From contig CAVVXT010000019.1 of NCBI GenBank assembly GCA_963752255.1, positions 448,001-512,000 of the forward strand: a stretch of DNA of 64,000 nucleotides. Direction: 5' to 3'. The position numbers and the translations under genes were made by a program. Source of the DNA: Nitrososphaeria archaeon (GTDB lineage Archaea > Thermoproteota > Nitrososphaeria > JACIWG01). Positions 7,423-58,605 of this stretch are shown here, in pieces (the first letter of the stretch is position 1; every line of letters starts with the position of its first letter). The notes under the pieces were generated by a model. The model was not told where the DNA came from. It searched no databases and saw only the letters and a program-made list of their open reading frames with translations.

Positions 7423-7558
7423 CCTGCAAACGGCATCCCATGATTCTGTGCAGAATGTTAACCTCCGCACTTACAAATTAATATCTGACCTTTTTCTAAA
7501 GGAGTGAAAAATATATATCTAAGTCACTTAGCGCTCTATTACTTGCGTGATAAATTTT

Positions 7559-8107
7559 ATGAGTGATGAAAAGCAGGTGCCAGAAGAAACGAGTCACGAG
7601 ACAGAAAAGATAATTCAAGAACTTGAAGAAGAAAAGAAACTCTGCGGAGAATATCTAACGCGCCTTAAATATCTGCAAGCTGATTTTGATAACTACAGAA
7701 AGAGGGTTGAAAGACAACTTGAGGATATTAAAAGATACTCCAACGAACGCTTTGTAATTGAGATGCTCGAAGTAGTCGATGAGTTAGAAATAGCCGTCAA
7801 AGCTGGCCAAGATTCGAACTCCACGAAAGTATTGATCGAAGGGGTTGAGATGACTCTTAAAAAAATACAGAAGATTTTAATAAATGAGAACGTTAGGCCC
7901 GTAGAGTGTCTCGGAAAGCCTTTTGATCCATCCAAGTGCAACGCAATCGCTACAGTTGAGAAGGAAGACGTAGAGGAAGGCGTTGTTGTGGAGGAAATCA
8001 GAAAAGGATATATCATGAACGATAAGATAATAAGGCCGAGTATTGTTAAGGTAACAATTAAGCCAGGTGTAAAAAAAGATGAAATTAAAGGTGATTTAAA
8101 TGAGTAA
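7559..8107 (+). CDS. grpE: Nucleotide exchange factor GrpE
   Basis: [29 protein letters not shown]; lies immediately before dnaK. Confidence 0.95.
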
Positions 8108-9965
8108 AGTTCAGACAAGCGAAAAAGTTATTGGAATAGATTTGGGAACAACAAATTCAGCGGCAGCGACCTTCGAAGGCGGCAGAGCAACGGTGATTCC
8201 AAGCGTTGAAGGCCCTTCAGCTTCAGGAAAGATGTTTCCGTCTGTTGTGGCATTCACAAAAGACGGGCAACTTCTTGTAGGAGAGTCAGCTAAAAGACAG
8301 GCCACTGCAAACCCTGAGGGAACGATATTTGAGATAAAGAGAAAAATGGGTACAGACTATAAGGTTAGAATTTACGGAAAAGAGTACACGCCTCAACAGA
8401 TTTCTGCTTTTATACTGCAGAAGATAAAGAGGGACACGGAAACATTCCTAGGAATGCCAGTAAAAAAGGCAGTCATCACAGTACCAGCCCACTTTAATGA
8501 CAACCAGAGACAGGCTACCAAAGATGCGGGGGAAATTGCAGGATTCGAAGTTCTCAGAATAATAAACGAGCCGACAGCAGCCTGCCTTGCATACGGTATC
8601 GACAAATTGGACAGAGATATGAAGATCTTAGTTTTTAGCTTCGGAGGCGGAACACACGATGTCACAGTAATGGACTTTGGAAAAGGCGTTTTCCAGGTTC
8701 TTTCCACAAGTGGGGATACTCAAACAGGCGGCACGGACATCGACCAGGCGTTGGTGGACTACGTAATTGAGGATTTCAAAAAACAGACGGGAGTCGATCT
8801 TAGATATGATAAAATGGCTGCTGCTCGACTTAAAGAAGCCTGTGAAAAGGCAAAGATAGAGCTGTCAACAATACTGAATACGGACATAGATCTGCCGTTT
8901 ATATATGCGGATTCATCAGGACCAAAGAACCTTCATATAACCATCTCAAGGGCCAAACTGGAGGAACTAGCCGATCCGATAGTCCAGAAGACAGGCCGAA
9001 CAATTACAAAGGCGCTTGACGACGCAAAATTAACATCGAAAGAAATAGACAAGATAATTCTCATAGGTGGAACTACCAGGATGCCGCTTGTGCAGAAATT
9101 TGTTGAAAAAGTGATCGGAAAAACTGTTGAGAGAGGCATTGACCCAATGGAGTGTGTAGCGGTTGGAGCAGCAATACAGGGCGCAGTGCTTTCAGGTGAA
9201 GTGAAAGATATCCTGCTTCTTGATGTCACCCCGCTTTCACTTGGTGTCGAAACCCTGGGAGGAGTTTTCAGCAAAATCATGGAAAAAAATACGACGATAC
9301 CTACCAAGAGAAGCCAGGTCTTTTCAACCGCTGCAGATTTCCAGACCGCTGTTACAATACATATCCTTCAGGGAGAAAGAGCGATGGCCGCCGATAATGT
9401 ATCTCTTGGAATGTTCAATCTTGAAGGAATAGCTCCTGCACCAAGGGGGGTGCCTCAGATAGAAGTAACATTTGACATAGATGCGAATGGGATACTCAAC
9501 GTTACCGCAAAGGACCTAGGAACTGGTAAAGAGGGGAAGATAACGATAACAGCTTCGACTAAACTTTCAAAGGAAACTAAGGAAAAGATGGTGAGAGAGG
9601 CTGAAGAGTTCGCCGAGCAGGACAAAAAGAAGAAGGAGGAAGTTGAAATAAGGAACGATTCCGAAGCTCTGATCTACACATCTGAAAAGACGAAGAAGGA
9701 TTTAGGGGAGAAGCTTAATCAACAGCAGAAGGATCAGATAGACAAAGCAGTTACCGAACTGAAAGAAGCTCTCGCAGGAAACGAAATTGATAAAATGAAA
9801 GAAAAGCAGGAGGGGCTAAGGAAGGTTCTGCAGGAAGTTGGGACAGTGATCTATCAACAGGCTGCTTCAGAATATGCAAAACAGCAGAAAGGACCTGAAG
9901 CGGGGACGCAAACTCAGGATAAAGATAAGGATAACACCGTTGACACAAGCTATACAGTAAAATAG
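8100..9965 (+). CDS. dnaK: Chaperone DnaK (Hsp70)
   Basis: [52 protein letters not shown]. Confidence 0.99.
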
Positions 9966-9997
9966 TTCTAGAACGTTAATAGTCCTAAGGCGGTGGC

Positions 9998-11128
9998 ATG
10001 TCCAACAAGAAAGACTACTATGAAGTACTCGGCGTGCAAAGGGGTACTACAAAGGACCAGATCAAAGATGCTTATAGAGAATTGGCCATGCAATACCATC
10101 CTGACAGGAACAAGTCACCTGGAGCAGAGGAAAAGTTCAAAGAAATTTCTGAAGCCTATGCTGTTCTATCAGACGATGAAAAACGCCAACAGTACGATAC
10201 GCTGGGCCACACCGGATTTGATCAAAGGTACAGCACGGAAGACATCTTCAGAGGAACGGATTTCGAATCGATCCTAAGAGACATGGGTTCTGGATTCGGA
10301 TTCGATAATATATTCGACATCTTCTTCGGAAGAGGAGGTGGTGGTTACGAAGGATCACCTATGAGAGGAAGAGACCTTTCAGTTGAACTCGAGGTAACAC
10401 TAGAGGAGACTGCAAAAGGTGTTGAAAAGGAGATAGAGATACCAAGAACTGAAAGGTGTGATGTATGCCGTGGTACGGGTGCAAGCCCAGGCACATCGCC
10501 GAAAACCTGTCCGACGTGCAGAGGGACCGGCCAAGTTCAGAAGGTGCGCTCAAGCGGCTTCGCTCGTTTTGTTCAGATATCGACATGCTCCACATGCAGG
10601 GGGGCAGGAAGAATAATCGAATCCCCTTGCAGGGAATGCAGAGGAACAGGCATGGTAAGGAAGATACGAAAGATTTCTGTAAGAGTACCTCCCGGAATAG
10701 ATGATGGCCAACAGCTGAGGCTCGAGGGCCAAGGAGATGTGTTACCCAACGGTGGAGCAGCAGGGGACTTATTTATACAGATTAAAATTGCGCCTCATAA
10801 ATACTTCCAAAGGGAAGGAGACAGCCTCTTATATGAGCTGTCAATCAGCTTTCCCCAAGCAGCGCTGGGAACAGAGGTATCAATTCCGACAATAGATGGG
10901 AGCATGTGGATAAAGATACCGGCTGGAACACAGCCTGGAACAGTAATGAAGCTGTCTGGAAAGGGCATGCCTAGATTGAATAGATACGGTCGAGGAGACC
11001 TGCTGGTTCACGTTGATGTATCTGTACCGAAGAGCCTTACTCAGCGTCAGAAAGAACTTCTACAGGAATTAAGCGGAGAATTCGGCCAAAATGTGGAAGA
11101 CAGGAGAAAAGGCTTTTTTAGATTCTAG
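9998..11128 (+). CDS. dnaJ: Chaperone DnaJ
   Basis: J domain with HPD, G/F-rich region, four CxxCxGxG repeats. Confidence 0.98.
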   Translation: MSNKKDYYEVLGVQRGTTKDQIKDAYRELAMQYHPDRNKSPGAEEKFKEISEAYAVLSDDEKRQQYDTLGHTGFDQRYSTEDIFRGTDFESILRDMGSGFGFDNIFDIFFGRGGGGYEGSPMRGRDLSVELEVTLEETAKGVEKEIEIPRTERCDVCRGTGASPGTSPKTCPTCRGTGQVQKVRSSGFARFVQISTCSTCRGAGRIIESPCRECRGTGMVRKIRKISVRVPPGIDDGQQLRLEGQGDVLPNGGAAGDLFIQIKIAPHKYFQREGDSLLYELSISFPQAALGTEVSIPTIDGSMWIKIPAGTQPGTVMKLSGKGMPRLNRYGRGDLLVHVDVSVPKSLTQRQKELLQELSGEFGQNVEDRRKGFFRF

Positions 11129-12233: not shown

Positions 12234-14858
12234 ATGGGGGGGACAGAGGGGACCACTGATAAGGTTGATTCCGGACACCAACACGTAATCTTAAGCACGG
12301 AAGATTTCCTAAGTCAGCCGATCGAAGAGGTTTTCTCTAAACTTGGTACCTCAAAGTCAGGTCTTACATCAAAAGAGGCAGAAGATCGCATTAAGACCTA
12401 TGGACGAAACGAATTTGCCAAAAAAAGGAGGCGAAGCGCCCTCGAAAAATTTCTTCTGCAGTTGAAGAGCCCTCTAGTAATAATACTGCTTTTTGCGAGT
12501 CTCGTATCAGCCTTCTTTGGAGAAATAATAAATGCGGGCATAATATTCTTCATAATTTTCTTGAGTTTAATTCTTCTTTTCTATCAGGAATCTAAGGCAG
12601 AGAAAGCCGCGGAAACTCTGAAGGAAAAGGTAACCACTACAGCAACTGTGTTAAGGGATCAGATAAAACAGGAGGTGAAACTTTCTGACATCGTGCCTGG
12701 CGACATACTATTCCTTTCAGCAGGAGACATCGTACCAGCAGACGCAAGAGTATTCAGTGCAAAGGACCTATTCATTAACCAATCAGCACTGACTGGAGAG
12801 TCATTTCCTGTCGAAAAAGTAACAGCGCCCCTAGAAACAAAAAGTTCACAAATTACGGATTGGGATAATTTTCTCTTTTTAGGGACCTCGGTTGTCAGCG
12901 GGACAGCGAACGCCGTTGCAGTAAGAACCGGAAGCGCAACTGAATACGGAAAAATTTCCAAAAAGCTTGTTGAGAGAGCGCCAGAAACGGAGTTCGAGAG
13001 GGGGCTTAGAAGATTTGGTTTCTTAATAATGGAGGTAACGTTTATCCTCGTGATCTTTGTCTTTTTCATAAACGCCCTTCTTAGACAACATGTGCTTGAA
13101 GCGCTTCTTTTTTCCTTAGCCTTAGCGGTCGGTCTGACCCCTGAACTTTTACCGATGATCTTGTCAGTGAACCTTTCGAACGGTGCGATTTCGATGTCTA
13201 AGAAGGGGGTTATTGTAAAACGGTTGGCTTCTATCCAAAACTTTGGAAGCATGGATGTTTTATGCACGGATAAAACCGGTACTCTAACAGAAAACAAGAT
13301 TACACTCATAAAACATATAGATGTAGATGGAAAAGATGACGAAAAGGTACTTTTATATTCTTTTTTAAATAGCTCCTTTCAAACTGGGCTTAGAAGTCCT
13401 CTTGATGATGCAATTCTGGTATACAAAGGGATAGACATTAAAGACTACCAGAAGATTGATGAAGTTCCATTCGATTTTACAAGAAGACGTGTTTCAGTGG
13501 TTGTCGAAAATAGAAATGAGAGAATCTTGATTTCCAAAGGAGCTCCAGAAGAGATCTTCCAAGTGTGCACCTTCTGTGAAATTGAAGAAGTTAATTACGA
13601 CATGACATCTGAGTTAACAAAAGAGTTTGAGGAAAAATATTATGAACTTAGCACTCAAGGGTTCAGGGTTTTAGGGGTTTCATACAAGAGGGTAAAAGAG
13701 GAAAAAAAGGTTTACTGCGTCGATGACGAGGTTGATATGGTTTTTTTGGGTTTCATAGCTTTCATTGATCCCCCAAAAGAGACTGTGATGAAATCTTTAC
13801 AACAATTGCGCCAAGCTTCTATCGAACTTAAAATTCTAACAGGCGACAACGAAATTGTAACAAGAAAGGTCTGCGAACAATTAGGCTTCGACATTAAACG
13901 CATCGTACTCGGAAAAGAGATTTCACAGCTAACAGATGAAGCATTAGCGAGAGTCGTTGAGCAGGCAAATATCTTTGCCAGAGTGACGCCGGCTCAGAAG
14001 GGCAGAATAATTTCTGCTTTAAGAAATAACGGCCATGTTGTCGGCTTCCTAGGCGACGGTATAAATGACGCACCTTCCATGAAAATATCGGACGTCGGGA
14101 TATCCGTGGATAACGCTGTAGATGTCGCAAAAGAGTCTGCGGACATCATATTATTGCATAAAGACCTTACTGTGCTAGCGGATGGAGTTCTAGAGGGAAG
14201 GAAAACTTTCGGAAACACGATGAAGTACATCATGATGGGGACCAGTTCGAACTTTGGCAACATGTTCAGTGTCGCAGGAGCGTCAATCTTTTTACCGTTT
14301 CTGCCAATGCTTCCAATACAGATACTCCTTAACAATCTGCTGTACGATTTTTCAGAGCTTACAATACCCACGGATAATGTCGATCAAGAATACTTGAGCA
14401 CGCCAAAAAGATGGGATATCTCTTTCATACGGAGGTTCATGATAACTTTGGGTCCCATCAGCTCAATTTTCGATTTCCTGACGTTTTTCATAATGTGGTT
14501 CGTTTTTCATGCTTCTGCACCACTTTTCCAGACAGCATGGTTCCTCGAATCTTTGGCATCACAGTCTTTGGTCGTATTCGTTATAAGAACAAGGGAGACG
14601 CCGTTCTATAAAAGCAGACCTAGTAAATTTCTACTGATTAGCACTTTAGGAGTTGTTGCATTTGCACTGATACTACCGTTAACGCCTATAGGCAGGTTGT
14701 TCAAGTTCGAAGTACCACCCTTTACATTCTTCATAATATTAGCAGGCCTCCTTATCGTTTACTTAGCACTTGTTGATCTTGTTAAAAGATGGTTCTACCG
14801 ACACTACTCATATGGTCTCGAAGTAATCTCTAAGCCCAATAATGACATATATACATAG
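12234..14858 (+). CDS. mgtA: Magnesium-translocating P-type ATPase
   Basis: LTGES, AVGLTPELLP, DKTGTLT, GDGINDAP, SSNFGNMFS, NLLYD. Confidence 0.93.
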   Translation: MGGTEGTTDKVDSGHQHVILSTEDFLSQPIEEVFSKLGTSKSGLTSKEAEDRIKTYGRNEFAKKRRRSALEKFLLQLKSPLVIILLFASLVSAFFGEIINAGIIFFIIFLSLILLFYQESKAEKAAETLKEKVTTTATVLRDQIKQEVKLSDIVPGDILFLSAGDIVPADARVFSAKDLFINQSALTGESFPVEKVTAPLETKSSQITDWDNFLFLGTSVVSGTANAVAVRTGSATEYGKISKKLVERAPETEFERGLRRFGFLIMEVTFILVIFVFFINALLRQHVLEALLFSLALAVGLTPELLPMILSVNLSNGAISMSKKGVIVKRLASIQNFGSMDVLCTDKTGTLTENKITLIKHIDVDGKDDEKVLLYSFLNSSFQTGLRSPLDDAILVYKGIDIKDYQKIDEVPFDFTRRRVSVVVENRNERILISKGAPEEIFQVCTFCEIEEVNYDMTSELTKEFEEKYYELSTQGFRVLGVSYKRVKEEKKVYCVDDEVDMVFLGFIAFIDPPKETVMKSLQQLRQASIELKILTGDNEIVTRKVCEQLGFDIKRIVLGKEISQLTDEALARVVEQANIFARVTPAQKGRIISALRNNGHVVGFLGDGINDAPSMKISDVGISVDNAVDVAKESADIILLHKDLTVLADGVLEGRKTFGNTMKYIMMGTSSNFGNMFSVAGASIFLPFLPMLPIQILLNNLLYDFSELTIPTDNVDQEYLSTPKRWDISFIRRFMITLGPISSIFDFLTFFIMWFVFHASAPLFQTAWFLESLASQSLVVFVIRTRETPFYKSRPSKFLLISTLGVVAFALILPLTPIGRLFKFEVPPFTFFIILAGLLIVYLALVDLVKRWFYRHYSYGLEVISKPNNDIYT

Positions 14859-14905: not shown

Positions 14906-16525
14906 TTAGTGTCCTCCCCCTCCAGCACAGGCGCAAGCACAGCTTACACAAGCGCAGGCACATGCGCAGGCATGACAAGCGCATACACAGTTAGAATTAT
15001 GCTGCACTGGAGCTCGGGATTGAGCCTGTTGGGCTGGAGGTGGAAGAATATTTTTAGTAAATTGCTCTATATTAGAAACAAATTTTGAAGACGTCTGTTC
15101 AAACGACTTTGCAATAGAATCAGCGAAATCCGCACCGGGGATGCTAATTTTGCCGGCAGGTTGAGCGGTCTTCAAGTCGCTTTGTGAAGGAGCAACGTTA
15201 GGTAGATATCTGCTATTATAGTTGTACCAGCCCCATTCAGGTCCTGGAATAAAGATGATTGGAGTGAACTTCTGCTTAGTCCTATTTACATATCCATCAT
15301 CTAGCATGAGCCAAAGAAGTTGTTCGTTGAAAAGATTTGAAGCAAGCTCTGGCGTCTGCGCTTTTTCAACTTGACTCCATGCCTGCTCAACCACTGACCT
15401 ATAATGGTTCACAGTATCTTCTCTACAATAGCCCCTGACTTTATTGTCAACAGTATCTCTTAGGTTCATTATCGTCTTTGCTAGTTTTTCCTCGCTCAAG
15501 TAGCCATCAGGCTTTATCGCGTCGAGAAAACCTATTTCGTAGTACATAAGATCAGGTGGACGAGACTGAACTTTTAAATTAATACTAGGTTCAACGCCTT
15601 CGACATAGACCACTTTCTTCAAAAGTAGACCGTACAATATGGCTGTAACGACCTTAGGTGGGGGCAGCCCAAGGAGTTGAGCTGCTTCCACAGCTGTTAA
15701 ACCGGCTTTTACGCCTAGGGCTTCAATATTCATCTGGGGAGCTAAATAATTTCTCTTTCTGAGAGCGCCAAAAGCTCCGACCATAGCCAAAATAATGAAT
15801 AAAACGATGAAAGCTACGAACGCCAAGGGAATCAGGAGGGTAAAAAGATCTGATGTTCCACTATTCGCCTTATAGTTAGGCATCAAAGAAGAAGGAAAGG
15901 AGACGCCAACTTCAAACTTCTGTCCTTTTGTAAGATTATTTCTTTCCCAATACATCACAAGCCTTCCCCCTTCTTCGGTTGGAACCTGATCCCAGTTAGG
16001 AGTGTTCTTAACGTCCCCTGCTTTTGTGCCAGAAGGAAAGACGATCATTGCTCTTAGGTCAGACACTTCTGCGTCGTCGAACCAGCATGCGATAAATTTC
16101 ATACCATAGTTTCCCTTATTGTCGGCATCGTTGTAGATCATCTGCCCGACGTTTGTAAGCAGGGTGAATTCCGAAGATTCACCGACATTTATCGGCTTGG
16201 GAAGAGTCACATCCACCCGATAATTGCTACCACTACTAGCGTCTACAGCTTTCAATACTGCACCTCCTATATCCTTTGCTTCGCCAATCTTGAAGTCTCC
16301 GTTGGGTTGACCGACATAGAAACCGCTCATAACGCCTGAAGTACATGTCACCGTCATGTTGTAGAGCAGGTCGATTGTGCCGTCGCCATTAATCCAGATC
16401 TTTATGTATTCACGATCCACCTGATAAGTTAAGGGCTCGGCTGCTAGTGCAGCATTCCAAGACAGAGACACCGCTAGAAAAATTAGTGCTAAAACGGTAA
16501 ATGTGCAAATGGTTTTGTTTACCAT
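14906..16525 (-). CDS. Membrane protein with extracellular domain and a C-terminal Cys-rich (CA)n-GGGGH tail
   Basis: N-terminal signal peptide, ~190-aa beta-rich domain, TM helix (~aa 228-252), C-terminus CVCACHACACACACVSCACACAGGGGH. Confidence 0.8.
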   Translation of the reverse strand: MVNKTICTFTVLALIFLAVSLSWNAALAAEPLTYQVDREYIKIWINGDGTIDLLYNMTVTCTSGVMSGFYVGQPNGDFKIGEAKDIGGAVLKAVDASSGSNYRVDVTLPKPINVGESSEFTLLTNVGQMIYNDADNKGNYGMKFIACWFDDAEVSDLRAMIVFPSGTKAGDVKNTPNWDQVPTEEGGRLVMYWERNNLTKGQKFEVGVSFPSSLMPNYKANSGTSDLFTLLIPLAFVAFIVLFIILAMVGAFGALRKRNYLAPQMNIEALGVKAGLTAVEAAQLLGLPPPKVVTAILYGLLLKKVVYVEGVEPSINLKVQSRPPDLMYYEIGFLDAIKPDGYLSEEKLAKTIMNLRDTVDNKVRGYCREDTVNHYRSVVEQAWSQVEKAQTPELASNLFNEQLLWLMLDDGYVNRTKQKFTPIIFIPGPEWGWYNYNSRYLPNVAPSQSDLKTAQPAGKISIPGADFADSIAKSFEQTSSKFVSNIEQFTKNILPPPAQQAQSRAPVQHNSNCVCACHACACACACVSCACACAGGGGH

Positions 16526-16863
16526 TTAGGTTCCTCTGACAGTTGAGAGCTAGATCCACAGTAGGGACAGCTGATGTAAGTAATTCCCGAGACGATTTTG
16601 ATGTTCCCAATCGGAACCGGTGCAGAGCATTGAGGACATTTAACTACTTTAGTCTGTATATCGGCAGGAAGGTCAACTTGATATCTTATAGGAGACCGCG
16701 GTCGAGTAATATAGATGTAGAAGGGTATTAATAGGCCTACTAGGACGAGAACGGATCCAGGTATTATCCTAGAAGATTCGTAAACCGATGCTATCAAGAA
16801 TATTATGCCAAAGAATATCAGCACTGCAGCCAGGATAACTGCAAGAACTACCACGACCCTCAA
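16519..16863 (-). CDS. Small two-TM membrane protein with C-terminal zinc ribbon
   Basis: Two hydrophobic helices, CPQC...CPYC; its stop overlaps the start of the next gene. Confidence 0.8.
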   Translation of the reverse strand: MRVVVVLAVILAAVLIFFGIIFLIASVYESSRIIPGSVLVLVGLLIPFYIYITRPRSPIRYQVDLPADIQTKVVKCPQCSAPVPIGNIKIVSGITYISCPYCGSSSQLSEEPKW

Positions 16864-16876
16864 ATTTTTTCACCTA

Positions 16877-18220
16877 TCAAGACTGACCGCAAACATAATG
16901 GCCAGCACCATATTCGAGTGGACAGCCTGAGCCACAAGTCTTAAAGTCCGCACAGTCAACGCATTCGGAAGGAGCATACTTTCTAGTTCTCAATTCCACC
17001 GATAAAGGGTTGTTCCAGATGTCAGCCCACCTGTCGCTCAGAATATTGCCTAAGGATTTAAAGTAGCTCTGGCATGGGTAAACATCACCGTTAGGACCAA
17101 CGCACATATTCATCAGAGCCGCGCTGCAAGATTTTATGCCTAATCCCATGTTTACTGGGTCAAGTTCACAGTATCTAGTCGGAGTAAACCATGAGAAAGT
17201 CAGCCCCAACTCTTCGGCCTTGGCCTCCAGTTTAGTCAAAACTTCTTTAAGCCTTTCAATTGGAAGAGCCAACTCTTTAGATGAGGACTCTCCTCTACCA
17301 CTATAGATCAGACTGTTACAGCAAAAGCTCTTTACGCCGAGGTTCTTCAAGAATTCCATGGTCTCTAAAGCGCCATCGACGTTTAATCGCGTGAGAGTAG
17401 TATTTGTTGAGACATATATCTTAGATTCGAGAGCGTTCCTTAATCCTTCTACAGTCTCATTCCAGCTTCCAGGTGAACAAGTCATTTTATCATGTATTTC
17501 AGGGATATGAGATTCGACGGTGATCTGAACAAAATCTAAACCTGCATCGGCTAAGGACTTGACGTAGCTTTTATCTGAAAGTCTGCGACCATTTGTAATA
17601 AGACCGCTGACAAGACCCGAGTTCTGGGCGTACTGTAATAGTGTAGGCAAATCATCCCTCAAAGTGGGCTCTCCACCTGTAAAGGTAACGATAAAGATGG
17701 CTGCATCCTTAACCCTGTTAATTACCTGCATCCAATCAGAAGTTGAAAGCTCAATACCTTCTTTTGGTCCTCCAACGTAACAGTGTATGCAATCATTTTG
17801 GCATCTGAACGTCAGGGCCAGATCCATCCTAACAGGAGCCGTTGAAGGGGCACTAAATGGCTCCAAACGCCCAACACCAAGATAGGATATAGGACACACC
17901 TTCCCAGTCTTAGCTAACGTGTTAACGGTGTACAGAAAACGTTCGTGATCCTTTTTAGCTTCTTTTTTTGACACCTTGTAAACTCTTGTAATATCTTTAA
18001 CAGCATTTTCTACGGTCAGACCATTGACAAACAAGTAGGCGTGAAAAGTTGCGGTTTCATTCATGTAAAACACTGCGTTAGCGTTAACTGCAAGAACACC
18101 CTTGCCATCAGGCTCAACCCTTAGCTGAACGGACAGCCCTTTGTAGTCTCCTTTCCCCCTAAACGTGTATAGTCCAGGTTTAGCTGCTAAAGGGGACCTG
18201 CCAAAGATCCTCGAAAACAT
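16877..18220 (-). CDS. Radical SAM/SPASM protein with N-terminal PqqD/RRE-like domain
   Basis: CQNDCIHC (CxxxCxxC), FTGGEP, SPASM cysteines CSAA..GDVYPC..CVDC..CGSGC. The N-terminal segment MNETATF..AVKDITRVYKVSKKEAKKD is RRE-like. Confidence 0.9.
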   Translation of the reverse strand: MFSRIFGRSPLAAKPGLYTFRGKGDYKGLSVQLRVEPDGKGVLAVNANAVFYMNETATFHAYLFVNGLTVENAVKDITRVYKVSKKEAKKDHERFLYTVNTLAKTGKVCPISYLGVGRLEPFSAPSTAPVRMDLALTFRCQNDCIHCYVGGPKEGIELSTSDWMQVINRVKDAAIFIVTFTGGEPTLRDDLPTLLQYAQNSGLVSGLITNGRRLSDKSYVKSLADAGLDFVQITVESHIPEIHDKMTCSPGSWNETVEGLRNALESKIYVSTNTTLTRLNVDGALETMEFLKNLGVKSFCCNSLIYSGRGESSSKELALPIERLKEVLTKLEAKAEELGLTFSWFTPTRYCELDPVNMGLGIKSCSAALMNMCVGPNGDVYPCQSYFKSLGNILSDRWADIWNNPLSVELRTRKYAPSECVDCADFKTCGSGCPLEYGAGHYVCGQS

Positions 18221-18290
18221 ACAAATCTAGTTGACATAATATCATATATTTGAACTTTGTATTTAGAAGAAATACTATTTGTTGGGATAT

Positions 18291-18755
18291 TTATGACCTT
18301 GTCAGGTCAAATAGAATTTTTGAAGCTCCTTCAACGTACTTAGTACACTTATTTTCCTTTAACCCGAGTTTTTTGAAAAGAGCTCTTCCTTCTGATGTGG
18401 AAAGGTCACATTTTATTAGATTACGACATCGAACATCACCGAACTCTTTCTTGAACCTTTCATAGCATTCCGAACTCTTTGCTAAACAAAGATCATATGC
18501 GTCTTGGTCAAGCCTATCCCTCCCATACATAAGACCTATTGCCATAATTGCACCCGTCAAGGCACCGCAGACAGACCCCTTTCTGGCGATTCCTCCTCCG
18601 AAACCGGTCGCGATTCTTGGTACGATATTGCTGCTTATTTTATTAGCTTCCGTGTATCCCATCAAAACAGATTCGCAGCAGTTATAGCCTTCCCTAAAAT
18701 GTGAACTTGCCCTCTCAGAAATGTCCTCCATTCCAATCATTTTTAAGAATTTCAA
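18291..18755 (-). CDS. C_GCAxxG_C_C family putative redox protein
   Basis: GYNCCESV, GFGGG, VCGALTG, RC..L, C.KYV. Confidence 0.88.
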   Translation of the reverse strand: MKFLKMIGMEDISERASSHFREGYNCCESVLMGYTEANKISSNIVPRIATGFGGGIARKGSVCGALTGAIMAIGLMYGRDRLDQDAYDLCLAKSSECYERFKKEFGDVRCRNLIKCDLSTSEGRALFKKLGLKENKCTKYVEGASKILFDLTRS

Positions 18756-18855
18756 GTTATATATAAAAATATATATGAAATTCCAAGCATAGAAAAAATG
18801 TCTTTTCCACAGATTTTGTAAAACTTTAATATCCTAAAAGACAAAATCAGATGAT

Positions 18856-19434
18856 ATGACAGATGAAGAGCTACCTCCAGACCAGTATGAAATCCCAAAC
18901 CTCCTCAGGTGGAACATTGATCACCCCGGAATAATTTCATCGAATCCGAGGATCGATCTTGAAAAATGGATTCTAACTGTCGATGGGGAAGTCGAAAAAC
19001 CAATTAAGCTTCGATGGGGAGACTTCCTAAAACTTACATCAATAGAATCAAAAAGCGACTTTCACTGCGTGGAAGGATGGAGTGTCAGAAACTGTAGATG
19101 GTACGGCGTTAACTTCAAAACATTAGTCGAACTTGTTAAACCAGCTAAGGAAGCTAAATACGTGTTCTTCAAATGCTCAGATGGTTATACGACTTCTTTA
19201 AACCTGGAGGAGCTGCTTAAAGACGATGTTCTCCTAGCCTACAGGCTAAATGATAAGCCTCTAGACGAACCCTTTGGGGGTCCACTTAGGCTTGTAGTTC
19301 CGGACAAATACGCCTACAAGAGTGCGATGTGGGTGGAGAAGATAACCTTCACGAAAAAGAAGGAACTAGGATTTTGGGAGAAAAGAGGTTACAGCGACGA
19401 CGCCGATGTCTGGAGCAACTCACGTCTAAGATGA
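18856..19434 (+). CDS. Sulfite oxidase-like molybdopterin-binding oxidoreductase
   Basis: DFHCVEGWS, DGYTTSL, GGPLRLVVPDKYAYKSAMWV, GFWE.RGY. Confidence 0.9.
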   Translation: MTDEELPPDQYEIPNLLRWNIDHPGIISSNPRIDLEKWILTVDGEVEKPIKLRWGDFLKLTSIESKSDFHCVEGWSVRNCRWYGVNFKTLVELVKPAKEAKYVFFKCSDGYTTSLNLEELLKDDVLLAYRLNDKPLDEPFGGPLRLVVPDKYAYKSAMWVEKITFTKKKELGFWEKRGYSDDADVWSNSRLR

Positions 19435-20418: not shown

Positions 20419-21219
20419 ATGATAGAAGTCAAGGAGCTAAACGCAAATCTGGAGCCCCTTTTCTACGAACATATTTCGAATGATGTACCTAACTATTATT
20501 TTTTCATACTAGATTGGAAGTATAACCGGCAAGATACAAAAATATTGATAGCACAGGAAAATGGAAAAATCAGGGGAACGATGATAGTTTTTAAGAATCA
20601 AATCATCTCAATAAGGGGGAGTTTAAACGCAGCCGAATCATTATTGGACAGAATTGACTTGGATGATGTTGAAGCAAATTGCTACGAAGAACACAAATCG
20701 ATACTGCTTAAGAAATACGAACCTATGATGGAGCATAAGTTGACGTTGATGAAACTTGAAAATGTAGCCGACAGTGTCCACCCAAAATACCCTTTAACAA
20801 AGCTGGTCACAGATGATTCAGAAGAAACATCAAAAATTATAATGGAATCTTTGCCAATTCATTGGGGCCAGGTTACAGCAGAGGAAATATATTCAAGAAT
20901 AAATGAAGGTGACCCATGTTATTGCATTAAAGAAGACGACAGAATAGTTTCTGTCGCGTTGGCAAAAGAAAAGGACTTCGGGGAAACGATCGGCATAGTA
21001 GGTTACATAAATGCAGTTGCAACAGTCAAGGACTACAGGAACAGAGGATATGCTACATCGATGGTTTACTAGTTATCAAGGAAGCTCCTTGAAAGATCAA
21101 AATACGTGCTACTATCCGTATTAAGCGATAACATTCCAGCTTTTACAGCATATTCTAGAGTCGGGTTTAAACCCGTAAGAAGCTATTATTTTATGAGGGG
21201 ACATAAGATAATGGGCTAA
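20419..21219 (+). CDS. GNAT acetyltransferase interrupted by one in-frame TAG (21070-21072)
   Basis: Motif A VATVKDYRNRGYAT; after the TAG the same frame continues LSRKLL..LSVLSDNIPAFTAYSRVGF to TAA at 21217-21219. Confidence 0.75.
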
Positions 21220-22775
21220 GACGAACTTGGGACTCTTAGGTCTATTTCCTTTCCGCTTCTACCATCAACCCAGACTAACCTTTTTTTATCTTCCAAAACC
21301 AATTCAACTCTGTATACTGGATAGAGGAAAGGCTTGAACTCTAGAAGATCGGAGCCTGGAAAAAGACCTTTGATAGCTTCACGAACTTCAGCTTCTTTTA
21401 ATTTAACGCTTACAACTTCAGCTTTCTGTGTGCTAATGTTTTCTAGAATCAACGTTTTCTCTTCTAAGTCGATCTTAGGTAATTCTACTATACGATGGTA
21501 CCGTCTTAATCTACCATCCTTGTAGGAGCTGATGAGCCTCTTCTTTTCTAAGGACTTTAGCAGACTACGCATTATGGGCTCTGAAACTTTCAATTCACCT
21601 GATATATCAATCAACGTGGAATCTTTATCTGGACTAAGCAACTTCAAAACCTCGATATGTTGTCGGCTCAAACCGATGAGCTGTTCAATTCCCTCCTTGG
21701 AAACTAATCCATCCTCGAGCATGACATATCTTCCGGTTACACCATCTGATATAAAGAACCTGTTCTCGAACCTTTTCCTAAGCAACCCAGTTCTAATGCT
21801 AACAGTTAGCTGAATCAAAGGGTTAAAGATCAGCTGAACACTGGAAACCTCTTCATGTTCTCCGAAAAAGATAAACCGCTTTTCCTTCTTGACAATAGAT
21901 GGCACATCGTTTAAGCCTATCAGTGGAGGAAGCCCAAGAAAGTTCTTCTCTGTTTTTAGGCTGCGAAGTTTTTTGAGAACTTCCTCAGAGTGTTGGATGA
22001 CACGATCCTTAAGTTTAGGGGTTATTCCCTCATGCCGTGTTTCCCTTAACCTGATCCTGACAGAAACGGGAGTGAGTGAAAAACCTCCAAGTGCATAGAA
22101 AACGCCTGGGGGAAGGGTTGTTAGCTGTTTTGGCAGACTATATCCAAGGAAAAACTGGGCGACCGACTCTAAATCGTTCTTTATATTTAGCTTTCCTATT
22201 AGCTGATTTGAGCACTGACTCAAGACATTTTTGTCTACAAGAGAGGGCCTCTGTGTGCAGAGCATTAGGCCAAGGCCACGCTTTCGTCCCCTCCTAGCCA
22301 CTTCTTCAATAATTTTGAGCCGTTCTCCTGCCTGCGGAATAAACTTGTCCGCTTCTTCAAGAACTATAAGATAGGGTGTCCTTCTGACAGAAACCTCTTT
22401 AAACATTTCAGAAAGAAACTCGCCCACCTTTCCTTTGGGATCTTCTGCCTCTGATACATCGAGGATTAAGGGGGAAATGTCGAGAGCCTGTCCAGCCAGT
22501 TCTTTGATGTTTAAGGCGCTCCAATTTAAATCGCATTTTTCGTCCTCTCCAACCCATATCATCTCATACTTTTCTTTCAGCCCAGAATACTCTCCTTCGA
22601 TATCTATGAGAGCAAATGGAACTCCAGCCTTACAGAGCTCCTCACAGAAGACGCCGACGGCATAACTCTTGCCACTTCCACTGGAGCCTATTATACAAGT
22701 CCTGCCAGTTACTATTAGATCAGCGTCGACTTGGAATATTTTCTCTCCATGAAAGCCCACATTTAGTAATGGCAC
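21216..22775 (-). CDS. HerA/DUF87-family P-loop ATPase with C-terminal winged HTH
   Basis: GSSGSGKS Walker A, LEEADKF Walker B, RGRKRG, TQRP; C-terminal DISGELKVSEPIMRSLLKSLEKKRLI. Confidence 0.8.
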   Translation of the reverse strand: MPLLNVGFHGEKIFQVDADLIVTGRTCIIGSSGSGKSYAVGVFCEELCKAGVPFALIDIEGEYSGLKEKYEMIWVGEDEKCDLNWSALNIKELAGQALDISPLILDVSEAEDPKGKVGEFLSEMFKEVSVRRTPYLIVLEEADKFIPQAGERLKIIEEVARRGRKRGLGLMLCTQRPSLVDKNVLSQCSNQLIGKLNIKNDLESVAQFFLGYSLPKQLTTLPPGVFYALGGFSLTPVSVRIRLRETRHEGITPKLKDRVIQHSEEVLKKLRSLKTEKNFLGLPPLIGLNDVPSIVKKEKRFIFFGEHEEVSSVQLIFNPLIQLTVSIRTGLLRKRFENRFFISDGVTGRYVMLEDGLVSKEGIEQLIGLSRQHIEVLKLLSPDKDSTLIDISGELKVSEPIMRSLLKSLEKKRLISSYKDGRLRRYHRIVELPKIDLEEKTLILENISTQKAEVVSVKLKEAEVREAIKGLFPGSDLLEFKPFLYPVYRVELVLEDKKRLVWVDGRSGKEIDLRVPSSS

Positions 22776-24119: not shown

Positions 24120-25217
24120 TCAGTAAATAAGCGAGCCAACTCTGTTCCCAGACAACGCTTCCTTAATGTCTAAGGAAATTCTCCTTCCGGTTGACATAGG
24201 TTCATTAAATATGTAAGGTGTATATGGGGAGCCTTCAGGATAAAGGTTAGTACCGGCAACGATGCGCGCAGAAACTTCAAAGACTATGAAACCTCTACTT
24301 GGATTATAGACTGTTTCTATGCAGAAGGGCCCAATAAGTCCAGGTGGAAACAGCTTGATGGAAGCCTCGATCAATCTAGCGCCTATAGCTAAGACGTCGG
24401 GTAGAAGACTCTCTCTGACGACAACAGGCTGGTTTCCTGACACCGTATAGTCAAGGTAATCGGGGATGATTTCAGGCAGCCCTCTATATATCTCATCTAT
24501 AGGCTCCAGTCGTCTATCCATGCTCATCAGCTCCAAGCCACCCGTAGACAGCTTTAGCCCCCTTGATCCTGCTAGGCTATAGAAGTAATGCGGGTAGTAA
24601 CGTGTTCCAGCTATGAACTCCTGGATAAACGTTTTATCTTCAGGTTTGATCACACCCTCGCGCACCTTTCCTGCAAGCTTTTCACGGAATTCATTAAAAT
24701 TCTTGACCCTAAAATAGCCCTTGCCACCCCTAGCACCATAGACCTTAACAAAGGCGTATGTGTCGATCTTCGAAGGGTCGTCGAAAACCTTCGGAAATTG
24801 CAGACTCGCTTCCCTGAACCATTCCAGCTGCTTCTCTCTATCGCTCTCCCACTCAAGGACTTTCCTGTTGCCGTACATTGGGACATAGAAAGAGTCTTGC
24901 AGGTTTTTAGCTCCGACATATTCTACAAATGAACCGTGAGCGATAATAATCGCATTGGAGCCAACAAGCCTCTCCTGGACTTCTGCTTCTAGAACATCCC
25001 GATAATTGTCCACGATAATAAACTCATCTGGGGAAGCTTCAGGGAACGCTTTATAGAACTGTACCCTATCCTTTAGACAGATTCCCAAGGTTCTGAACCC
25101 TTCTTTCTTCGCACCATGGAAGATCTGGAGAGCGGAATGAGAACATATTGTCGCTATAGAAATCTTCTTCTGATCGTACTTGGACAGCGTCTGAAGTATT
25201 TCTTTCCTATTTATCAT
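24120..25217 (-). CDS. purP: Formate--phosphoribosylaminoimidazolecarboxamide ligase PurP
   Basis: SHSALQIFHGAKKEGF, HGSFVEY, GARGGKGYF, FEVSARIVAGTN. Confidence 0.9.
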   Translation of the reverse strand: MINRKEILQTLSKYDQKKISIATICSHSALQIFHGAKKEGFRTLGICLKDRVQFYKAFPEASPDEFIIVDNYRDVLEAEVQERLVGSNAIIIAHGSFVEYVGAKNLQDSFYVPMYGNRKVLEWESDREKQLEWFREASLQFPKVFDDPSKIDTYAFVKVYGARGGKGYFRVKNFNEFREKLAGKVREGVIKPEDKTFIQEFIAGTRYYPHYFYSLAGSRGLKLSTGGLELMSMDRRLEPIDEIYRGLPEIIPDYLDYTVSGNQPVVVRESLLPDVLAIGARLIEASIKLFPPGLIGPFCIETVYNPSRGFIVFEVSARIVAGTNLYPEGSPYTPYIFNEPMSTGRRISLDIKEALSGNRVGSLIY

Positions 25218-26392
25218 GTAATTATCTCCTCCAACCTGTCCCTCTTAACAGCATAACTAATCTCCAACATGGAGAAGTCTAGCACGGACTCGAAATTCTG
25301 CACCTTCAACTTCAGATCAGCTATCTGAGACCTGTACTTGAGGAGTAATCTTCTCATTTCAGGAGATGTAGGCCCGATTCCAGGTGAGCCGGGTATGCGT
25401 GGACTAACGTCGAAGATAAAAAAATCTAACCTCTTACCCTCTGGATCTTCTGGATCATAGGCTATGGCGCCTTGGAGGGCAAACGGTCCAACAAGTCCTG
25501 GAGGATAGGCTTTTTTACAGACGGCAAGGAACTTCGACGCAGAATTATAGGCGAGAGGCTTCTGTGATTCGCGCATTGTTACACCGAAGTGGCCTATCTC
25601 CTCGTTCTTTACGTCAACCTCAAGCTCCAGTTGTTCCCGAGCGGTTAAATTCAGTATTCCCTGAAGGTTCACTTGCCTTCTGTCGTCAAATCCTAAAAAG
25701 TCAAAATCCCCGAAAACATCGTCCAGAGCCCAAGCTTGAAAGTTGGCGTTAAACCTCGGCCCCAGGACAAATTCCTCTATCACAGCATCCTTTAGGTCCC
25801 CAAGGTCTATTATATTCCTGGAAGAAAGTTCCTTAGCCTTCACCCAGTATTGATCAACGTTCTTAGCCGTAAAGAAGGCACGTTCAAGGGGCTTAGCCTT
25901 CTGACACACCTTCACTAAAACAAGCCTATCTATATCGTCAGGCTTGCTAAACCTCTTAGGCGTTCTTACGCCAGCTTCCTCTAGAAGCCAGTACTGGTTC
26001 TTTGACAACTTTCTATCTTCGGTCTTGAGCATGAACCTGTTGCCATAGATTGGAACTCGGAAATTGTCTTCAATATTCTTGCATCCTACGTAAACAGAAA
26101 ATGATCTGTTAGGCAGAAAGATTGTGTTCAGACGACGAAGCTCATCCTGAACCTCCCTATTTATGATATCTGAAAAGGAGTTTAAGACGATGCTATGGTC
26201 AAAGACGTGCCTGTTGAATTTTATGTAAAGGTCTTCTCTCCCTTTCTGACAGACTACTACCGTTGGAAAGCCAAAAATCTTTGCCGCAACACCGACTTCT
26301 TCTGCGGAATGTGATCCTAGAACGCCTATAGTAATCTTCTTGTTATCGTAGCTCTCTAAGGTTTTCTTTAGATCATCTATCTTTAGGACCAA
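25214..26392 (-). CDS. PurP-like ATP-grasp protein (second paralogue)
   Basis: GSHSAEE, PNRSFSVY, ERAFF, FDVSPRIPGSPG; 4-nt overlap with purP. Confidence 0.85.
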   Translation of the reverse strand: MVLKIDDLKKTLESYDNKKITIGVLGSHSAEEVGVAAKIFGFPTVVVCQKGREDLYIKFNRHVFDHSIVLNSFSDIINREVQDELRRLNTIFLPNRSFSVYVGCKNIEDNFRVPIYGNRFMLKTEDRKLSKNQYWLLEEAGVRTPKRFSKPDDIDRLVLVKVCQKAKPLERAFFTAKNVDQYWVKAKELSSRNIIDLGDLKDAVIEEFVLGPRFNANFQAWALDDVFGDFDFLGFDDRRQVNLQGILNLTAREQLELEVDVKNEEIGHFGVTMRESQKPLAYNSASKFLAVCKKAYPPGLVGPFALQGAIAYDPEDPEGKRLDFFIFDVSPRIPGSPGIGPTSPEMRRLLLKYRSQIADLKLKVQNFESVLDFSMLEISYAVKRDRLEEIIT

Positions 26393-56946: not shown

Positions 56947-58605
56947 TTGATAGATGCAGTTCAAGCTCTGGCAGTAGTTTTAATACTTGGCGTGACAGTG
57001 GCTCTTGCGAAGCTGCTTGCGCCGTACATAACGCGAGTCTACACTCGAGCTCCAAGCCGTTTAGATAAGATACTGAGTCCTGTTGAGAACTTTATTTACA
57101 AACTGGGTGGTGTGAACCCTGACGAGGTGATGGGTTGGAAGCAGTACTTCCTTTCTGGCTTTCTGCTTAACGTCACCCAAATGGTAATTGGTTTTTTAAT
57201 TTTGGTTTTTCAAGGCCACTTGCCTCTTAATCCTCAAGGTTTTCCTGGCTTAAGTTGGGATTTAGCCCTTAACACGGTTGTTTCGTTTGCCACAAACACG
57301 AATCTCCAGCATTACAATGGTGAAGCCACGCTTTCTATTTTTAGTCAGATGACCGCCATTCAATTTCTTCAATGTATCTCTGCTGCGACTGGCATATGCA
57401 TGGGAATTGCCATGGTACGGGGTTTCATCGTAGGTTCCAGAGACATGGGGAACTTCTATGTTGACTTTGTTAGAACCATCACCAGAATCCTTTTGCCCCT
57501 TTGCATTATTGCTTCAGTTATTCTTGTCGCAATGGGTGTTCCTCAAAGTCTTAATGCCTCCTCTGCTGTGAAAACCGTTGAAGGAACCACACAATCGATC
57601 CTCATCGGGCCTGTTGCGAGCCTTACGTCAATTATGCAGTTGGGAACCAACGGCGGCGGGTACTATGGCGCGAACGCTGCCTATCCATTCATGAATCCGA
57701 GCCCTTACTCAGACATATTTGAGATTGCATTGATGATGCTACTTCCTTTTGCTTTGTGTTTTGTTTTCGGAGAGTTGCTTGGTAAGAGACGGGAATCTAG
57801 GCCTCTTTTGTGGGGTGCGTTAATTCTTATCGGAGTTAATTTGGCGATAGCCTCCTTTCCGAGCATTCCACTCGTTGCGCCTGGTATTGAAACGAGGTTT
57901 GGAGGTTTCATGTCCATTTTTTGGACTGTCATAACTACTGCCTTTACGACTGGGTCTGTAAACTCTTCGTTGTCGGCGATGCATCCGCTGGTGATAGTTT
58001 CGGCGTTCATGGGCATGTTCGTTCAGTCAATCCCTGGCGGAAAGGGTGTTGGCATGATGTACATGATAATGTTCATTATCATAACTGTCTTCATTGTGGG
58101 TCTCATGTCCGGTAGAACGCCTGAATACTTGGAAATTAAGATCACTGGGCAAGATGTGCTGCTTGTTATGATAACTTTTCTAATCCACCCAATTATTATC
58201 CTAATCCCTACTGTTGTCGCATATGCTTCAGGTGCGGCTTCGGCTATCGGCGTGAGCGGTAGCTCTACTGGATACACTCAGATTTTGTATGAATTTACAA
58301 CATCTGCTGCAAACAACGGTTCCGATTTCTTGGGGGCATCAGGAAACACTCTCTTCTTCAACCTGAGCACTGCCATAGTCATTTTCATTGGGCGTTATGC
58401 TCCCATCTCGATCCTTCTTGCGCTCTCGGGCTCAATGATTGGGAGAAAACGAGGCGGTACAACAGGTCTAAGGACTGACAGCCCAGTATTCACTATAGTC
58501 CTAGTCGCAAGCATCATCATACTAGTTGTTTTGACTTTCTTCCCATTCTTGGCATTAGGGCCGATTTCGTCATTCTTTAAAGGGTTGGTGAATGGTTATG
58601 GGTAA
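56947..58605 (+). CDS. kdpA: Potassium-transporting ATPase subunit A
   Basis: SFATNTNLQHY.GE, LGTNGGG, TTGSVNS, GRTPEY, SAANNGS. Confidence 0.96.
   Translation: MIDAVQALAVVLILGVTVALAKLLAPYITRVYTRAPSRLDKILSPVENFIYKLGGVNPDEVMGWKQYFLSGFLLNVTQMVIGFLILVFQGHLPLNPQGFPGLSWDLALNTVVSFATNTNLQHYNGEATLSIFSQMTAIQFLQCISAATGICMGIAMVRGFIVGSRDMGNFYVDFVRTITRILLPLCIIASVILVAMGVPQSLNASSAVKTVEGTTQSILIGPVASLTSIMQLGTNGGGYYGANAAYPFMNPSPYSDIFEIALMMLLPFALCFVFGELLGKRRESRPLLWGALILIGVNLAIASFPSIPLVAPGIETRFGGFMSIFWTVITTAFTTGSVNSSLSAMHPLVIVSAFMGMFVQSIPGGKGVGMMYMIMFIIITVFIVGLMSGRTPEYLEIKITGQDVLLVMITFLIHPIIILIPTVVAYASGAASAIGVSGSSTGYTQILYEFTTSAANNGSDFLGASGNTLFFNLSTAIVIFIGRYAPISILLALSGSMIGRKRGGTTGLRTDSPVFTIVLVASIIILVVLTFFPFLALGPISSFFKGLVNGYG

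Follow-up and report, generated by a model that had tools for sequence, protein, structure and literature searches.

A radical SAM/SPASM enzyme with a fused recognition element is encoded beside a membrane protein bearing a conserved Cys-Ala tail, its candidate substrate, in archaea and Chloroflexota

To our knowledge, radical S-adenosylmethionine (SAM)/SPASM chemistry guided by the recognition element (RRE) of peptides synthesized ribosomally and modified post-translationally (RiPPs) is known almost only from short peptides which become natural products or small cofactors. SkfB and CteB are thioether-forming maturases, and the latter acts on SCIFF, a small Cys-rich peptide that is conserved widely and has no known role. 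Radical SAM/SPASM enzymes which act on real proteins, and not on natural-product precursors, are represented by QhpD, with its substrate QhpC, and by anSME, with sulfatase. Here, we analyzed a stretch of 64,000 nucleotides from a Nitrososphaeria archaeon (contig CAVVXT010000019.1, positions 448,001 to 512,000; the whole stretch is called the window below), in which the gene of a radical SAM/SPASM enzyme with a fused N-terminal RRE (rSAM) shares a tight cluster with the gene of a membrane protein (MEM) whose last 27 residues, CVCACHACACACACVSCACACAGGGGH, include 10 Cys. We propose, with a probability of roughly 0.55, that MEM would be a RiPP-like precursor and its cytoplasmic (Cys-Ala)n-GGG tail the substrate of rSAM, most likely stapled by thioethers, with the product retained.

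A documented parallel to such a tail is provided by StsA of Streptomyces sparsogenes. According to PMC10288494, the core of this precursor, CxCxCx4GxGxG, receives three hairpin Cys-to-Gly sactionines from StsB and the RRE protein StsC. The system resembles ours in joining an RRE-dependent radical SAM/SPASM enzyme to a substrate with Cys at every second position and then a Gly-rich stretch. StsA is a short stand-alone precursor, whereas here the putative core is the C-terminus of the 539-aa MEM; StsC is a separate protein, whereas the RRE found here is fused to the enzyme; and the tails of the MEM family differ from the StsA core in carrying from 3 to 10 Cys with Ala between them, on both tail halves. 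The StsB model is found among the matches of the window enzyme at 87.4 bits, far under its cut-off of 625.

The most constrained part of MEM is its tail; in the alignment of MEM relatives (A1) no other run of invariant columns is as long. A word-indexed search gave 928 MEM homologues among 8000 scored candidates, and all of the best 120 of these, 44-83% identical to MEM, bear the tail, with 10 (117 proteins) or 9 (three proteins) Cys in the last 45 residues; His often adjoins it. Because the 80 genomic loci considered below were retrieved by tail-peptide patterns, one per species-level genome, and so cannot prove conservation of the tail, we also built a profile without it (A3). Over 1.84 billion representatives this tail-less profile had 1738 matches at E<=1e-3, 895 of them at E<=1e-10 and 373 at E<=1e-30. 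Among the best 150 of the 1738, CACACA was present in the last 40 residues of 126, another 22 were C-terminal fragments ending before profile position 482 of 513, and in two (P0270 and P0293) the tail was internal and followed by about 85-90 more residues; no full-length member without the tail motif was found among these 150 representatives. The additional residues of P0270 and P0293 (659 and 675 aa) form an extra domain without Pfam match, and these proteins may mean that the tail need not be strictly C-terminal, or may be read-through fusions.

The number of Cys in the last 40 residues varied from 3 to 10 across the 126 tails, 7 being present in 58 of them; the common 7-Cys form is GGGG-CACACACAGCACACAGGGR, of the type seen in bacterial loci. 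The residue between cysteines was Ala in 644 of the 672 C-x-C triplets of these tails, with Val in 25, Asp in two and Ile in one. AGGG followed the last Cys directly in 107 of the 126, and 93 ended with GGGR. At the level of DNA the repeat is far less regular. The window tail uses TGT six times and TGC four times for Cys, and GCT four times, GCC three times and GCA once for Ala; Tandem Repeats Finder reported in it a 12-nt unit alone (2.2 copies, score 45). The degenerate Cys-Ala codon pattern TGYGCNTGYGCNTGYGC has three overlapping matches in the 64-kb window, all within the tail, against 0.01 expected from shuffles. A 10-Cys tail of 27 residues with varied codons, which is no DNA microsatellite, had been recognized in a sequence-only reading of this DNA, and these counts agree with it. 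Codons were also mixed over 74 loci with an exact 18-residue core, a set in which amino-acid identity holds by construction and codon scatter does not: TGT and TGC were used about 50:50, the first Cys being encoded by TGT in 40 and by TGC in 34, and all four GCN codons were used at every Ala position. Of the six loci outside this set, five have Val in place of one Ala (CACVCAC), and in the sixth, L058, a frameshift falls within the tail. Codon scatter combined with constancy of residues indicates that the repeat is kept at the protein level, and that Ala is as constrained as Cys.

Such a sequence could also be a metal or Fe-S site, a thiolate carpet laid on a beta-hairpin, with rSAM building or inserting the cluster or cofactor and no cross-linking taking place. 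Up to 10 Cys at i,i+2 spacing, often flanked by His, would suit this role; C-x-C is used by metallothioneins and Cu(I) sites, the host lineages named in the record titles are known as groups of anaerobes, and a gene of the C_GCAxxG_C_C family, coding for a putative redox protein, is a neighbor in two unrelated lineages (the window and a Chloroflexia locus, L068). However, metal sites tolerate variable spacers, yet Ala fills 96% of the triplets, a Cys number ranging from 3 to 10 is easier to reconcile with modification repeat by repeat than with a cluster of fixed geometry, and a fused RRE is a hallmark of peptide-binding maturases. The nearly absolute Ala and the terminal GGG fit acceptors or active-site residues better than mere spacers of a metal site, and we regard this explanation as unlikely, while giving it some weight.

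A still simpler role of the tail would be that of a C-terminal membrane anchor or sorting signal, consisting of a hydrophobic stretch and then a basic residue, without being a substrate of any enzyme. Residues 512-537 are as hydrophobic as a weak transmembrane (TM) segment (Kyte-Doolittle value of about 2.0), and the tail, when unmodified, might attach to the membrane; the prevalent GGGR end would provide the basic residue. Sorting signals and TM helices vary, whereas this tail is nearly invariant; its bacterial form, with about 15 hydrophobic residues, is too short, no NCBIfam model of C-terminal sorting domains matches MEM, and the presence of a dedicated radical SAM enzyme would be left unexplained. 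This possibility appears to us improbable in the extreme.

The second line of evidence comes from gene neighborhoods. When the four proteins of the window cluster were used in tblastn searches, an rSAM orthologue was found beside the tail-bearing gene in 76 of the 80 loci; this co-occurrence is counted from the MEM side, as the loci are anchored on tail patterns. In 74 loci rSAM is located directly downstream of MEM on the same strand, and the first aligned rSAM residue lies at most 83 nt from the MEM stop codon in 71 of them and at 205, 673 and 1798 nt in the rest. The order is rSAM-ZnR-MEM in the window (ZnR being a two-TM Zn-ribbon protein), rSAM-MEM in L063, and in L057 rSAM is on the opposite strand, about 2.8 kb upstream. 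Since gene order differs in these three cases, the adjacency of MEM and rSAM outlasts rearrangement. The connection between the enzyme and the tail, drawn in the sequence-only reading from one locus, is thus repeated in 76 of 80 loci and in at least four gene orders; the opposite pattern, tail homologues usually lacking the enzyme, which that reading had named as speaking against it, was not seen.

According to record titles, most of the loci belong to Bathyarchaeia, an abundant and largely uncultured group. The others come from Methanocella, Thermoproteota, Thermococci, Theionarchaea, metagenome-assembled genomes (MAGs) labeled 'Methanomicrobia' and 'Halobacteria', Promethearchaeota, Chloroflexota and a few probably mis-binned bacteria. 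Some of the rSAM matches are partial, at contig ends in L015, L040 and L071 and restricted to the first 135-150 residues in L031 and L061, and in L020 and L058 the match is split. The MEM frame of L058 (8830-9642) shifts inside the tail. The irregularities of L058, L031 and L061 may reflect assembly errors or decaying copies. Clustering of open reading frames (ORFs) from the loci revealed no other gene family common to more than about 25 of them; those reaching this level, a HAD-like hydrolase, a DNA-binding domain protein and an unknown family, represent lineage synteny within Bathyarchaeia.

Two accessory arrangements were observed in particular lineages. In the Chloroflexota loci L068 (9985-13354), L074 (9747-13389) and L078 (8939-11076) extra genes follow rSAM: in L068 and L074 a second paralogue with PqqD and partial Radical_SAM matches, whose ORF is without any CxxC; in L074 and L078 a class I SAM-dependent methyltransferase. 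These genes suggest further tailoring of the tail in bacteria. In a Thermoproteota subgroup (L056, 10953-11723; L059, 3221-3997; L060, 10953-11726) a gene of a Sir2-family deacylase (PF02146, E 2.5e-53 for L056) overlaps the end of rSAM, which may be lineage synteny or an accessory function.

The third line of evidence is the enzyme itself. The window rSAM matches the Radical_SAM (82.6 bits) and SPASM (42.6 bits) families of Pfam. In an alignment of 28 orthologues, 41-58% identical to the window protein (A2; L026 was left out due to a stop codon), C140, C144 and C147 of the CxxxCxxC motif are invariant in 28/28, and so are C351, C365, C383, C420, C423, C429 and C433 of the SPASM domain, C420-C433 being an exact CX2CX5CX3C; PF04055 and PF13186 likewise match all 28. 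The PqqD match at residues 42-96 of the window protein reaches 21.8 bits, below the 23.4 cut-off, and PF05402 (PqqD) matches 17 of the 28 orthologues at E<=0.01. An AlphaFold2 model of rSAM (predicted local distance difference test, pLDDT, 85.3; predicted TM-score, pTM, 0.85) shows an N-terminal domain with strands at 16-21, 30-35, 41-45 and 49-53, followed by helices at 55-65, 70-81 and 85-105. From this model the N-terminal domain can be taken as a real, fused RRE of PqqD-like build, and the PqqD/RRE-like domain suspected earlier from sequence is borne out by the model topology, by Foldseek and by the PF05402 matches.

Among structures in the PDB, the top Foldseek match of rSAM is SkfB (6efn, E 3.5e-19, 399 columns, TMt 0.70), the second is SuiB (5v1t and others, 436-463 columns, TM 0.65/0.66) and the third CteB (5why/5wgg). 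The RRE-rSAM-SPASM/twitch build is shared with these three enzymes over 399-463 aligned columns, most of the length of rSAM; they differ from rSAM in that identity is 16-21% and their substrates are short secreted or free peptides. A sequence search of the PDB likewise had SkfB as its best match (E 1.2e-16). The scores against NCBIfam models were 118.8 bits for MftC (cut-off 265), 99.4 for PqqE (381), 93.5 for WgkB (650), 77.3 for SkfB (300), 61.5 for ACGX (400) and 60.7 for AlbA (850), those for SkfB and AlbA thus being far under their cut-offs; NirJ2 was also among the best matches, and rSAM does not fall within the ScmE family either. By these comparisons rSAM is a separate clade of the SPASM group, outside every named maturase family. 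It nevertheless combines a CxxxCxxC motif, a SPASM domain, an RRE and an adjacent Cys-rich candidate substrate, which are together the features of RRE-dependent radical SAM/SPASM peptide maturases.

Another type of SPASM enzyme has to be considered in archaea. In PMC11186832, Gms is described as a radical SAM enzyme of the SPASM type, found in anaerobic archaea, that has three [4Fe-4S] clusters, six helices in its N-domain and a hydrophobic pocket for the lipid, and such enzymes modify glycerol dialkyl glycerol tetraether (GDGT) lipids. One could assume that rSAM is a lipid or small-molecule enzyme similar to the tetraether enzymes Tes and Gms, placed next to MEM due to shared membrane biology, the more so as GDGT-MAS is found among both sequence and structure matches. 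However, the N-domain of rSAM, four strands and then three helices, has the fold of peptide maturases and not that of Gms, and the features of GDGT enzymes were not found in it. GDGT-MAS aligns over the core alone, as do anSME, BlsE and PqqE, and poorly (TMq 0.42, as compared with 0.61-0.65 for SkfB and SuiB), and the cassette is present also in Chloroflexota, which are bacteria. We find a lipid substrate very unlikely.

The putative substrate should lie within reach of rSAM, which has no hydrophobic segment according to hydropathy. MEM has a hydrophobic N-terminal segment (residues 1-30) and one strong TM segment (222-258), followed by RKRN. Because of this N-terminal signal or anchor and the single TM segment, the C-terminal region of MEM, about 280 residues with the tail included, should be cytoplasmic. 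The AlphaFold2 model of MEM, calculated from a 28-row alignment (mean pLDDT 66.5), contains a beta-sandwich at 33-211 (pLDDT about 90), predicted to be extracellular, a TM helix at 227-256, a region of winged-helix-like and helical structure spanning 278-420, of which the winged-helix-like part (278-388) is modeled with moderate confidence, and a conserved helix at 465-493. The cytoplasmic position of the tail, argued before from topology, is in agreement with both hydropathy and the modeled TM helix. The tail itself is predicted to be disordered (pLDDT <50), as would be expected of a peptide-like substrate. The cytoplasmic domain is followed, ahead of the pre-tail helix, by an aromatic-rich segment (residues ~425-445; window ~15190-15250, minus strand); its consensus in relatives is W.WYWYGY..YHP.PTY (A1 columns 470-490) and it is modeled with low confidence.

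The pre-tail segment, residues 462-495, is a candidate leader-like docking site for the RRE. Its invariant residues in A1 are P463, G464, F467, A468, E476, V483, E487 and P495. In 92 of the 126 representatives with a tail, a loose motif containing F precedes it by 22-68 residues, and because the motif fits these 92 alone, the docking site is put forward tentatively. A predicted complex of full-length rSAM, with three 4Fe-4S clusters and SAM, and residues 458-539 of MEM scored 0.02 against a mark of 0.32 in a run without controls, and is counted neither for nor against docking.

A search with the tail region among proteins of 30-295 aa gave 156 matches, and all 120 that were listed are fragments of the MEM family, starting in the cytoplasmic region or in the pre-tail helix; the loose pre-tail motif is present in each of these 120. 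No stand-alone precursor was found in this short-protein search, and there is no room for one between the genes of the window cluster or, in most loci, between MEM and rSAM. The lack of an evident precursor gene, remarked upon in the sequence-only reading, was thereby supported.

One plausible explanation, which we prefer, would be the following. The conserved unit is a cassette of two to three genes, comprising MEM, a dedicated RRE-rSAM-SPASM enzyme and, in many lineages, ZnR. The whole MEM would act as a 'leader' and its last 15-27 residues as a 'core'. The fused RRE would dock on the cytoplasmic C-terminal region of MEM, possibly on the helix located about 20 residues before the tail, and the radical-SAM and SPASM domains would then modify the (Cys-Ala)n-GGG tail. 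The modification might consist of several thioether bridges of the sactionine type, from Cys sulfur to backbone carbon of neighboring Ala or Gly, by which the tail would become a compact, stapled hairpin or ladder; each Cys would stand opposite an Ala if the turn of such a hairpin had an odd length. Thioether chemistry is judged the most likely since the structural relatives SkfB and CteB make thioethers and since StsA offers a precedent. The product would probably stay attached to MEM, because no protease or exporter gene was found among the conserved neighbors in the 80 loci. In QhpD and anSME systems the modified Cys residues also remain in the functional protein; these differ from the case considered here in having soluble enzyme subunits as substrates, other motifs and enzymes not known to have an RRE, whereas here a membrane protein would be the target, at a tail of low complexity.

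The same tail could, however, be subject to other radical chemistry: L-to-D epimerization of every second residue (as by PoyD or enzymes of the YydG/EpeE type), C-beta oxidation of the anSME type, or another Cys-centered reaction. A processive enzyme that works on every second residue would be well served by the two-residue period and the Ala frequency given above. The Foldseek matches of rSAM include anSME (4k39, E 8.5e-13) as well as the epimerase EpeE (8ai4, E 3.2e-10), and its catalytic domain shows about the same distance to many SPASM families. On the other hand, the structures matching best over the full length belong to cross-linking maturases with an RRE, not to epimerases or anSME, and the tail sequence is devoid of the anSME motif. 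The documented CxCxC core, that of StsA, is thioether-linked (PMC10288494). We consider chemistry of these other kinds rather improbable, though still worth attention.

Several observations weigh against a thioether-stapled tail as the product of rSAM. None of the NCBIfam equivalogs reaches its cut-off, the best being GeoRSP with 132.3 bits against the required 400, and the catalytic domain points to no single reaction. In four of the 80 loci (L051, L077, L079 and L080) no rSAM match was found; L051 and L077 have a contig end on one flank, and in L079 and L080 8 kb per side were searched. The 80 loci, being anchored on the tail, cannot show how tail-less relatives behave. The cysteines of the MEM tail occupy both of its halves, while in characterized sactipeptides, StsA among them, donor and acceptor strands are separate (PMC10288494). 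Also, strictly periodic Cys would be expected from selection for binding of metal-thiolate as well.

It is conceivable that modification and metal binding are combined, the tail being a permanent protein-derived cofactor: a thioether-laddered or alternating D/L scaffold carrying a linear metal-thiolate or Fe-S array, which would pass electrons or metals at the membrane, with ZnR in the complex. To this we give a slender chance. If it were true, Bathyarchaeia, other anaerobic archaea and Chloroflexota would have taken RiPP machinery into service for making a fixed, organelle-like part of a housekeeping membrane protein.

A separate problem is the role of the partner genes. ZnR has weak Zn-ribbon matches alone, CxxC pairs CPQC and CPYC, and hydrophobic segments at 1-34 and 30-55; its zinc ribbon (CPxC...CPYC) is predicted to be cytoplasmic. 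A hidden Markov model of ZnR matches 60 of the 80 loci, mostly directly upstream of MEM, with two doubtful cases: in L073 the match is the MEM ORF itself, and in L063 it is weak and on the opposite strand. Among the 20 loci without ZnR, MEM stands at the start of the available DNA in seven, L061 has a broken MEM, and 12 have at least 650 nt upstream; the latter are from Thermoproteota, Thermococci, Theionarchaea and related MAGs. From these counts over the 80 loci, MEM and rSAM form the core and ZnR is a frequent third member. The Zn-ribbon partner proposed in the sequence-only reading stands as a frequent companion and fails as a universal one.

The C-terminus of ZnR is EEPKW, placed after the CPxC...CPYCG ribbon, in the window, L001-L006, L074 and L078, with the variants EEQPIW in L051 and VEDVKW in L079. 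A C-terminal Lys-Trp beside a SuiB-like enzyme makes a candidate second modification site worth a look. It may even be supposed that ZnR is the true substrate, its EEPKW end receiving a Lys-Trp cross-link as in streptide (SuiB) or by WgkB, and MEM a partner: this end is conserved in archaeal and Chloroflexota loci, and the second place of SuiB among structural matches and the WgkB score would agree with it. Nonetheless, rSAM and MEM occur without ZnR in the 12 loci having the upstream room, the MEM tail is present in 76/76 of the rSAM-bearing loci, and the WgkB score is far under the cut-off of 650. That ZnR replaces MEM as the substrate is, in our opinion, highly improbable.

The gene of the C_GCAxxG_C_C family has clear matches to PF09719 (92.6 bits, cut-off 27) and to TIGR01909 of NCBIfam (81.5 bits, cut-off 47.4). 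It is found beside the cassette in one of the 80 loci (L068, Chloroflexia), and in the window a 70-nt AT-rich gap separates it from the cassette. It is a neighbor in this genome, outside the conserved cassette, and the idea of a conserved four-gene operon had to be abandoned. An AT-rich, TATA-like stretch, AAATATAT, was noticed by eye about 30 nt upstream of the rSAM ATG (18221-18290, minus strand), and a second one, TTTTTATATATA, just upstream of the start of the C_GCAxxG_C_C gene (18756-18810, minus strand). The genes rSAM, ZnR and MEM may have a promoter of their own, separate from that of the C_GCAxxG_C_C gene.

As to the family of MEM, the protein has no NCBIfam match and no Pfam match at E<=0.1, and Foldseek with its model returned generic beta-sandwich matches alone (ribophorin I/Ost1, the N-domain of M1 aminopeptidase), without a functional lead. 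There is a general likeness to DUF2207 proteins (PF09972, PF20990): both combine a signal and an extracellular beta-domain with a TM segment, a cytoplasmic region and a tail of low complexity made of small residues. PF09972 matches weakly in four of 27 MEM relatives (best E 2.6e-4), some precomputed homologue labels also name PF09972, and the Atlas neighbor cluster of MEM is DUF2207 with a score of 0.93. In classical DUF2207 proteins the TM segments are more numerous and the tails are of Gly-rich and not of Cys-Ala type. Judging from the matches, any relationship of MEM to DUF2207 is distant at most. Stress and biofilm phenotypes were reportedly found in a study of the DUF2207 protein SMU.243 of Streptococcus mutans. 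Among longer members of the MEM family, P0249, P0257, P0259, P0271 and P0274 (766-838 aa) are extended by about 240 residues at the N-terminus and match in two stretches, which may represent a duplication of the extracellular domain; no Pfam match was found for the extra domains of 12 longer proteins (596-838 aa).

The new aspect that we propose is that RiPP-type radical SAM maturation would act on a full-size membrane protein, at its tail, the protein belonging to a large family which is mostly archaeal in our sample. If the tail is modified, it would represent a new substrate class for RiPP-type enzymes, and its Cys-Ala sequence, being perfectly periodic, may turn out to carry cross-links of a new topology. 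A tail region of 80 residues and a single enzyme would then provide a tractable handle on a conserved function in anaerobic archaea and Chloroflexota. Genome miners seeking short precursors alone could miss such systems. In the full-text literature, supplements aside, neither the family nor the tail nor the cassette was found described; the compendium of about 15,000 enzymes of PMC10288494 may list the enzyme group in its supplement.

Coordinates of the genes and segments discussed are collected in Table 1. In the window ORF list, four tightly spaced minus-strand ORFs fill positions 14906-18755, and their coordinates reproduce the co-directional arrangement reported previously, with a 70-nt gap, a 13-nt gap and then a 7-nt overlap along the cluster.

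Table 1. Features of the gene cluster, in window coordinates
Feature	Position	Strand	Remarks
C_GCAxxG_C_C gene	18291..18755	-	154 aa, TTG start; PF09719 match
Radical SAM/SPASM enzyme (rSAM), fused N-terminal RRE	16877..18220	-	447 aa; Pfam, NCBIfam, model
RRE (PqqD-like) domain of rSAM, residues 16-105	17906..18175	-	AlphaFold2, PF05402, Foldseek
Radical-SAM core and SPASM domain of rSAM	16922..17830	-	Pfam, invariant Cys
ZnR, two-TM Zn-ribbon protein	16519..16863	-	114 aa; overlaps MEM start by 7 nt
MEM, single-pass membrane protein	14906..16525	-	539 aa; ORF, AlphaFold2, hydropathy
Pre-tail segment of MEM, residues 462-495, IPGADF...helix...P	15041..15142	-	Alignment A1, AlphaFold2 helix
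Cys-Ala tail of MEM, residues 513-539, proposed core/substrate	14909..14989	-	27 residues

The cluster is flanked by a convergent gene of a Mg-type P-type ATPase (12234-14858) and a divergent MsrP-like gene (18856-19434). A scan of the 64-kb window found no tRNA genes. The gene content has an archaeal look, to which two PurP paralogues, a HerA-like ATPase and an aldehyde:ferredoxin oxidoreductase contribute. Elsewhere in the window there are genes of DnaK and DnaJ (7547-11128), with a 186-aa ORF just upstream, a HerA-like ATPase (21216-22775), two tandem paralogues of PurP, the formate-dependent FAICAR synthetase (24120-26392), KdpA and KdpB (56947-60772), and an aldehyde:ferredoxin oxidoreductase.

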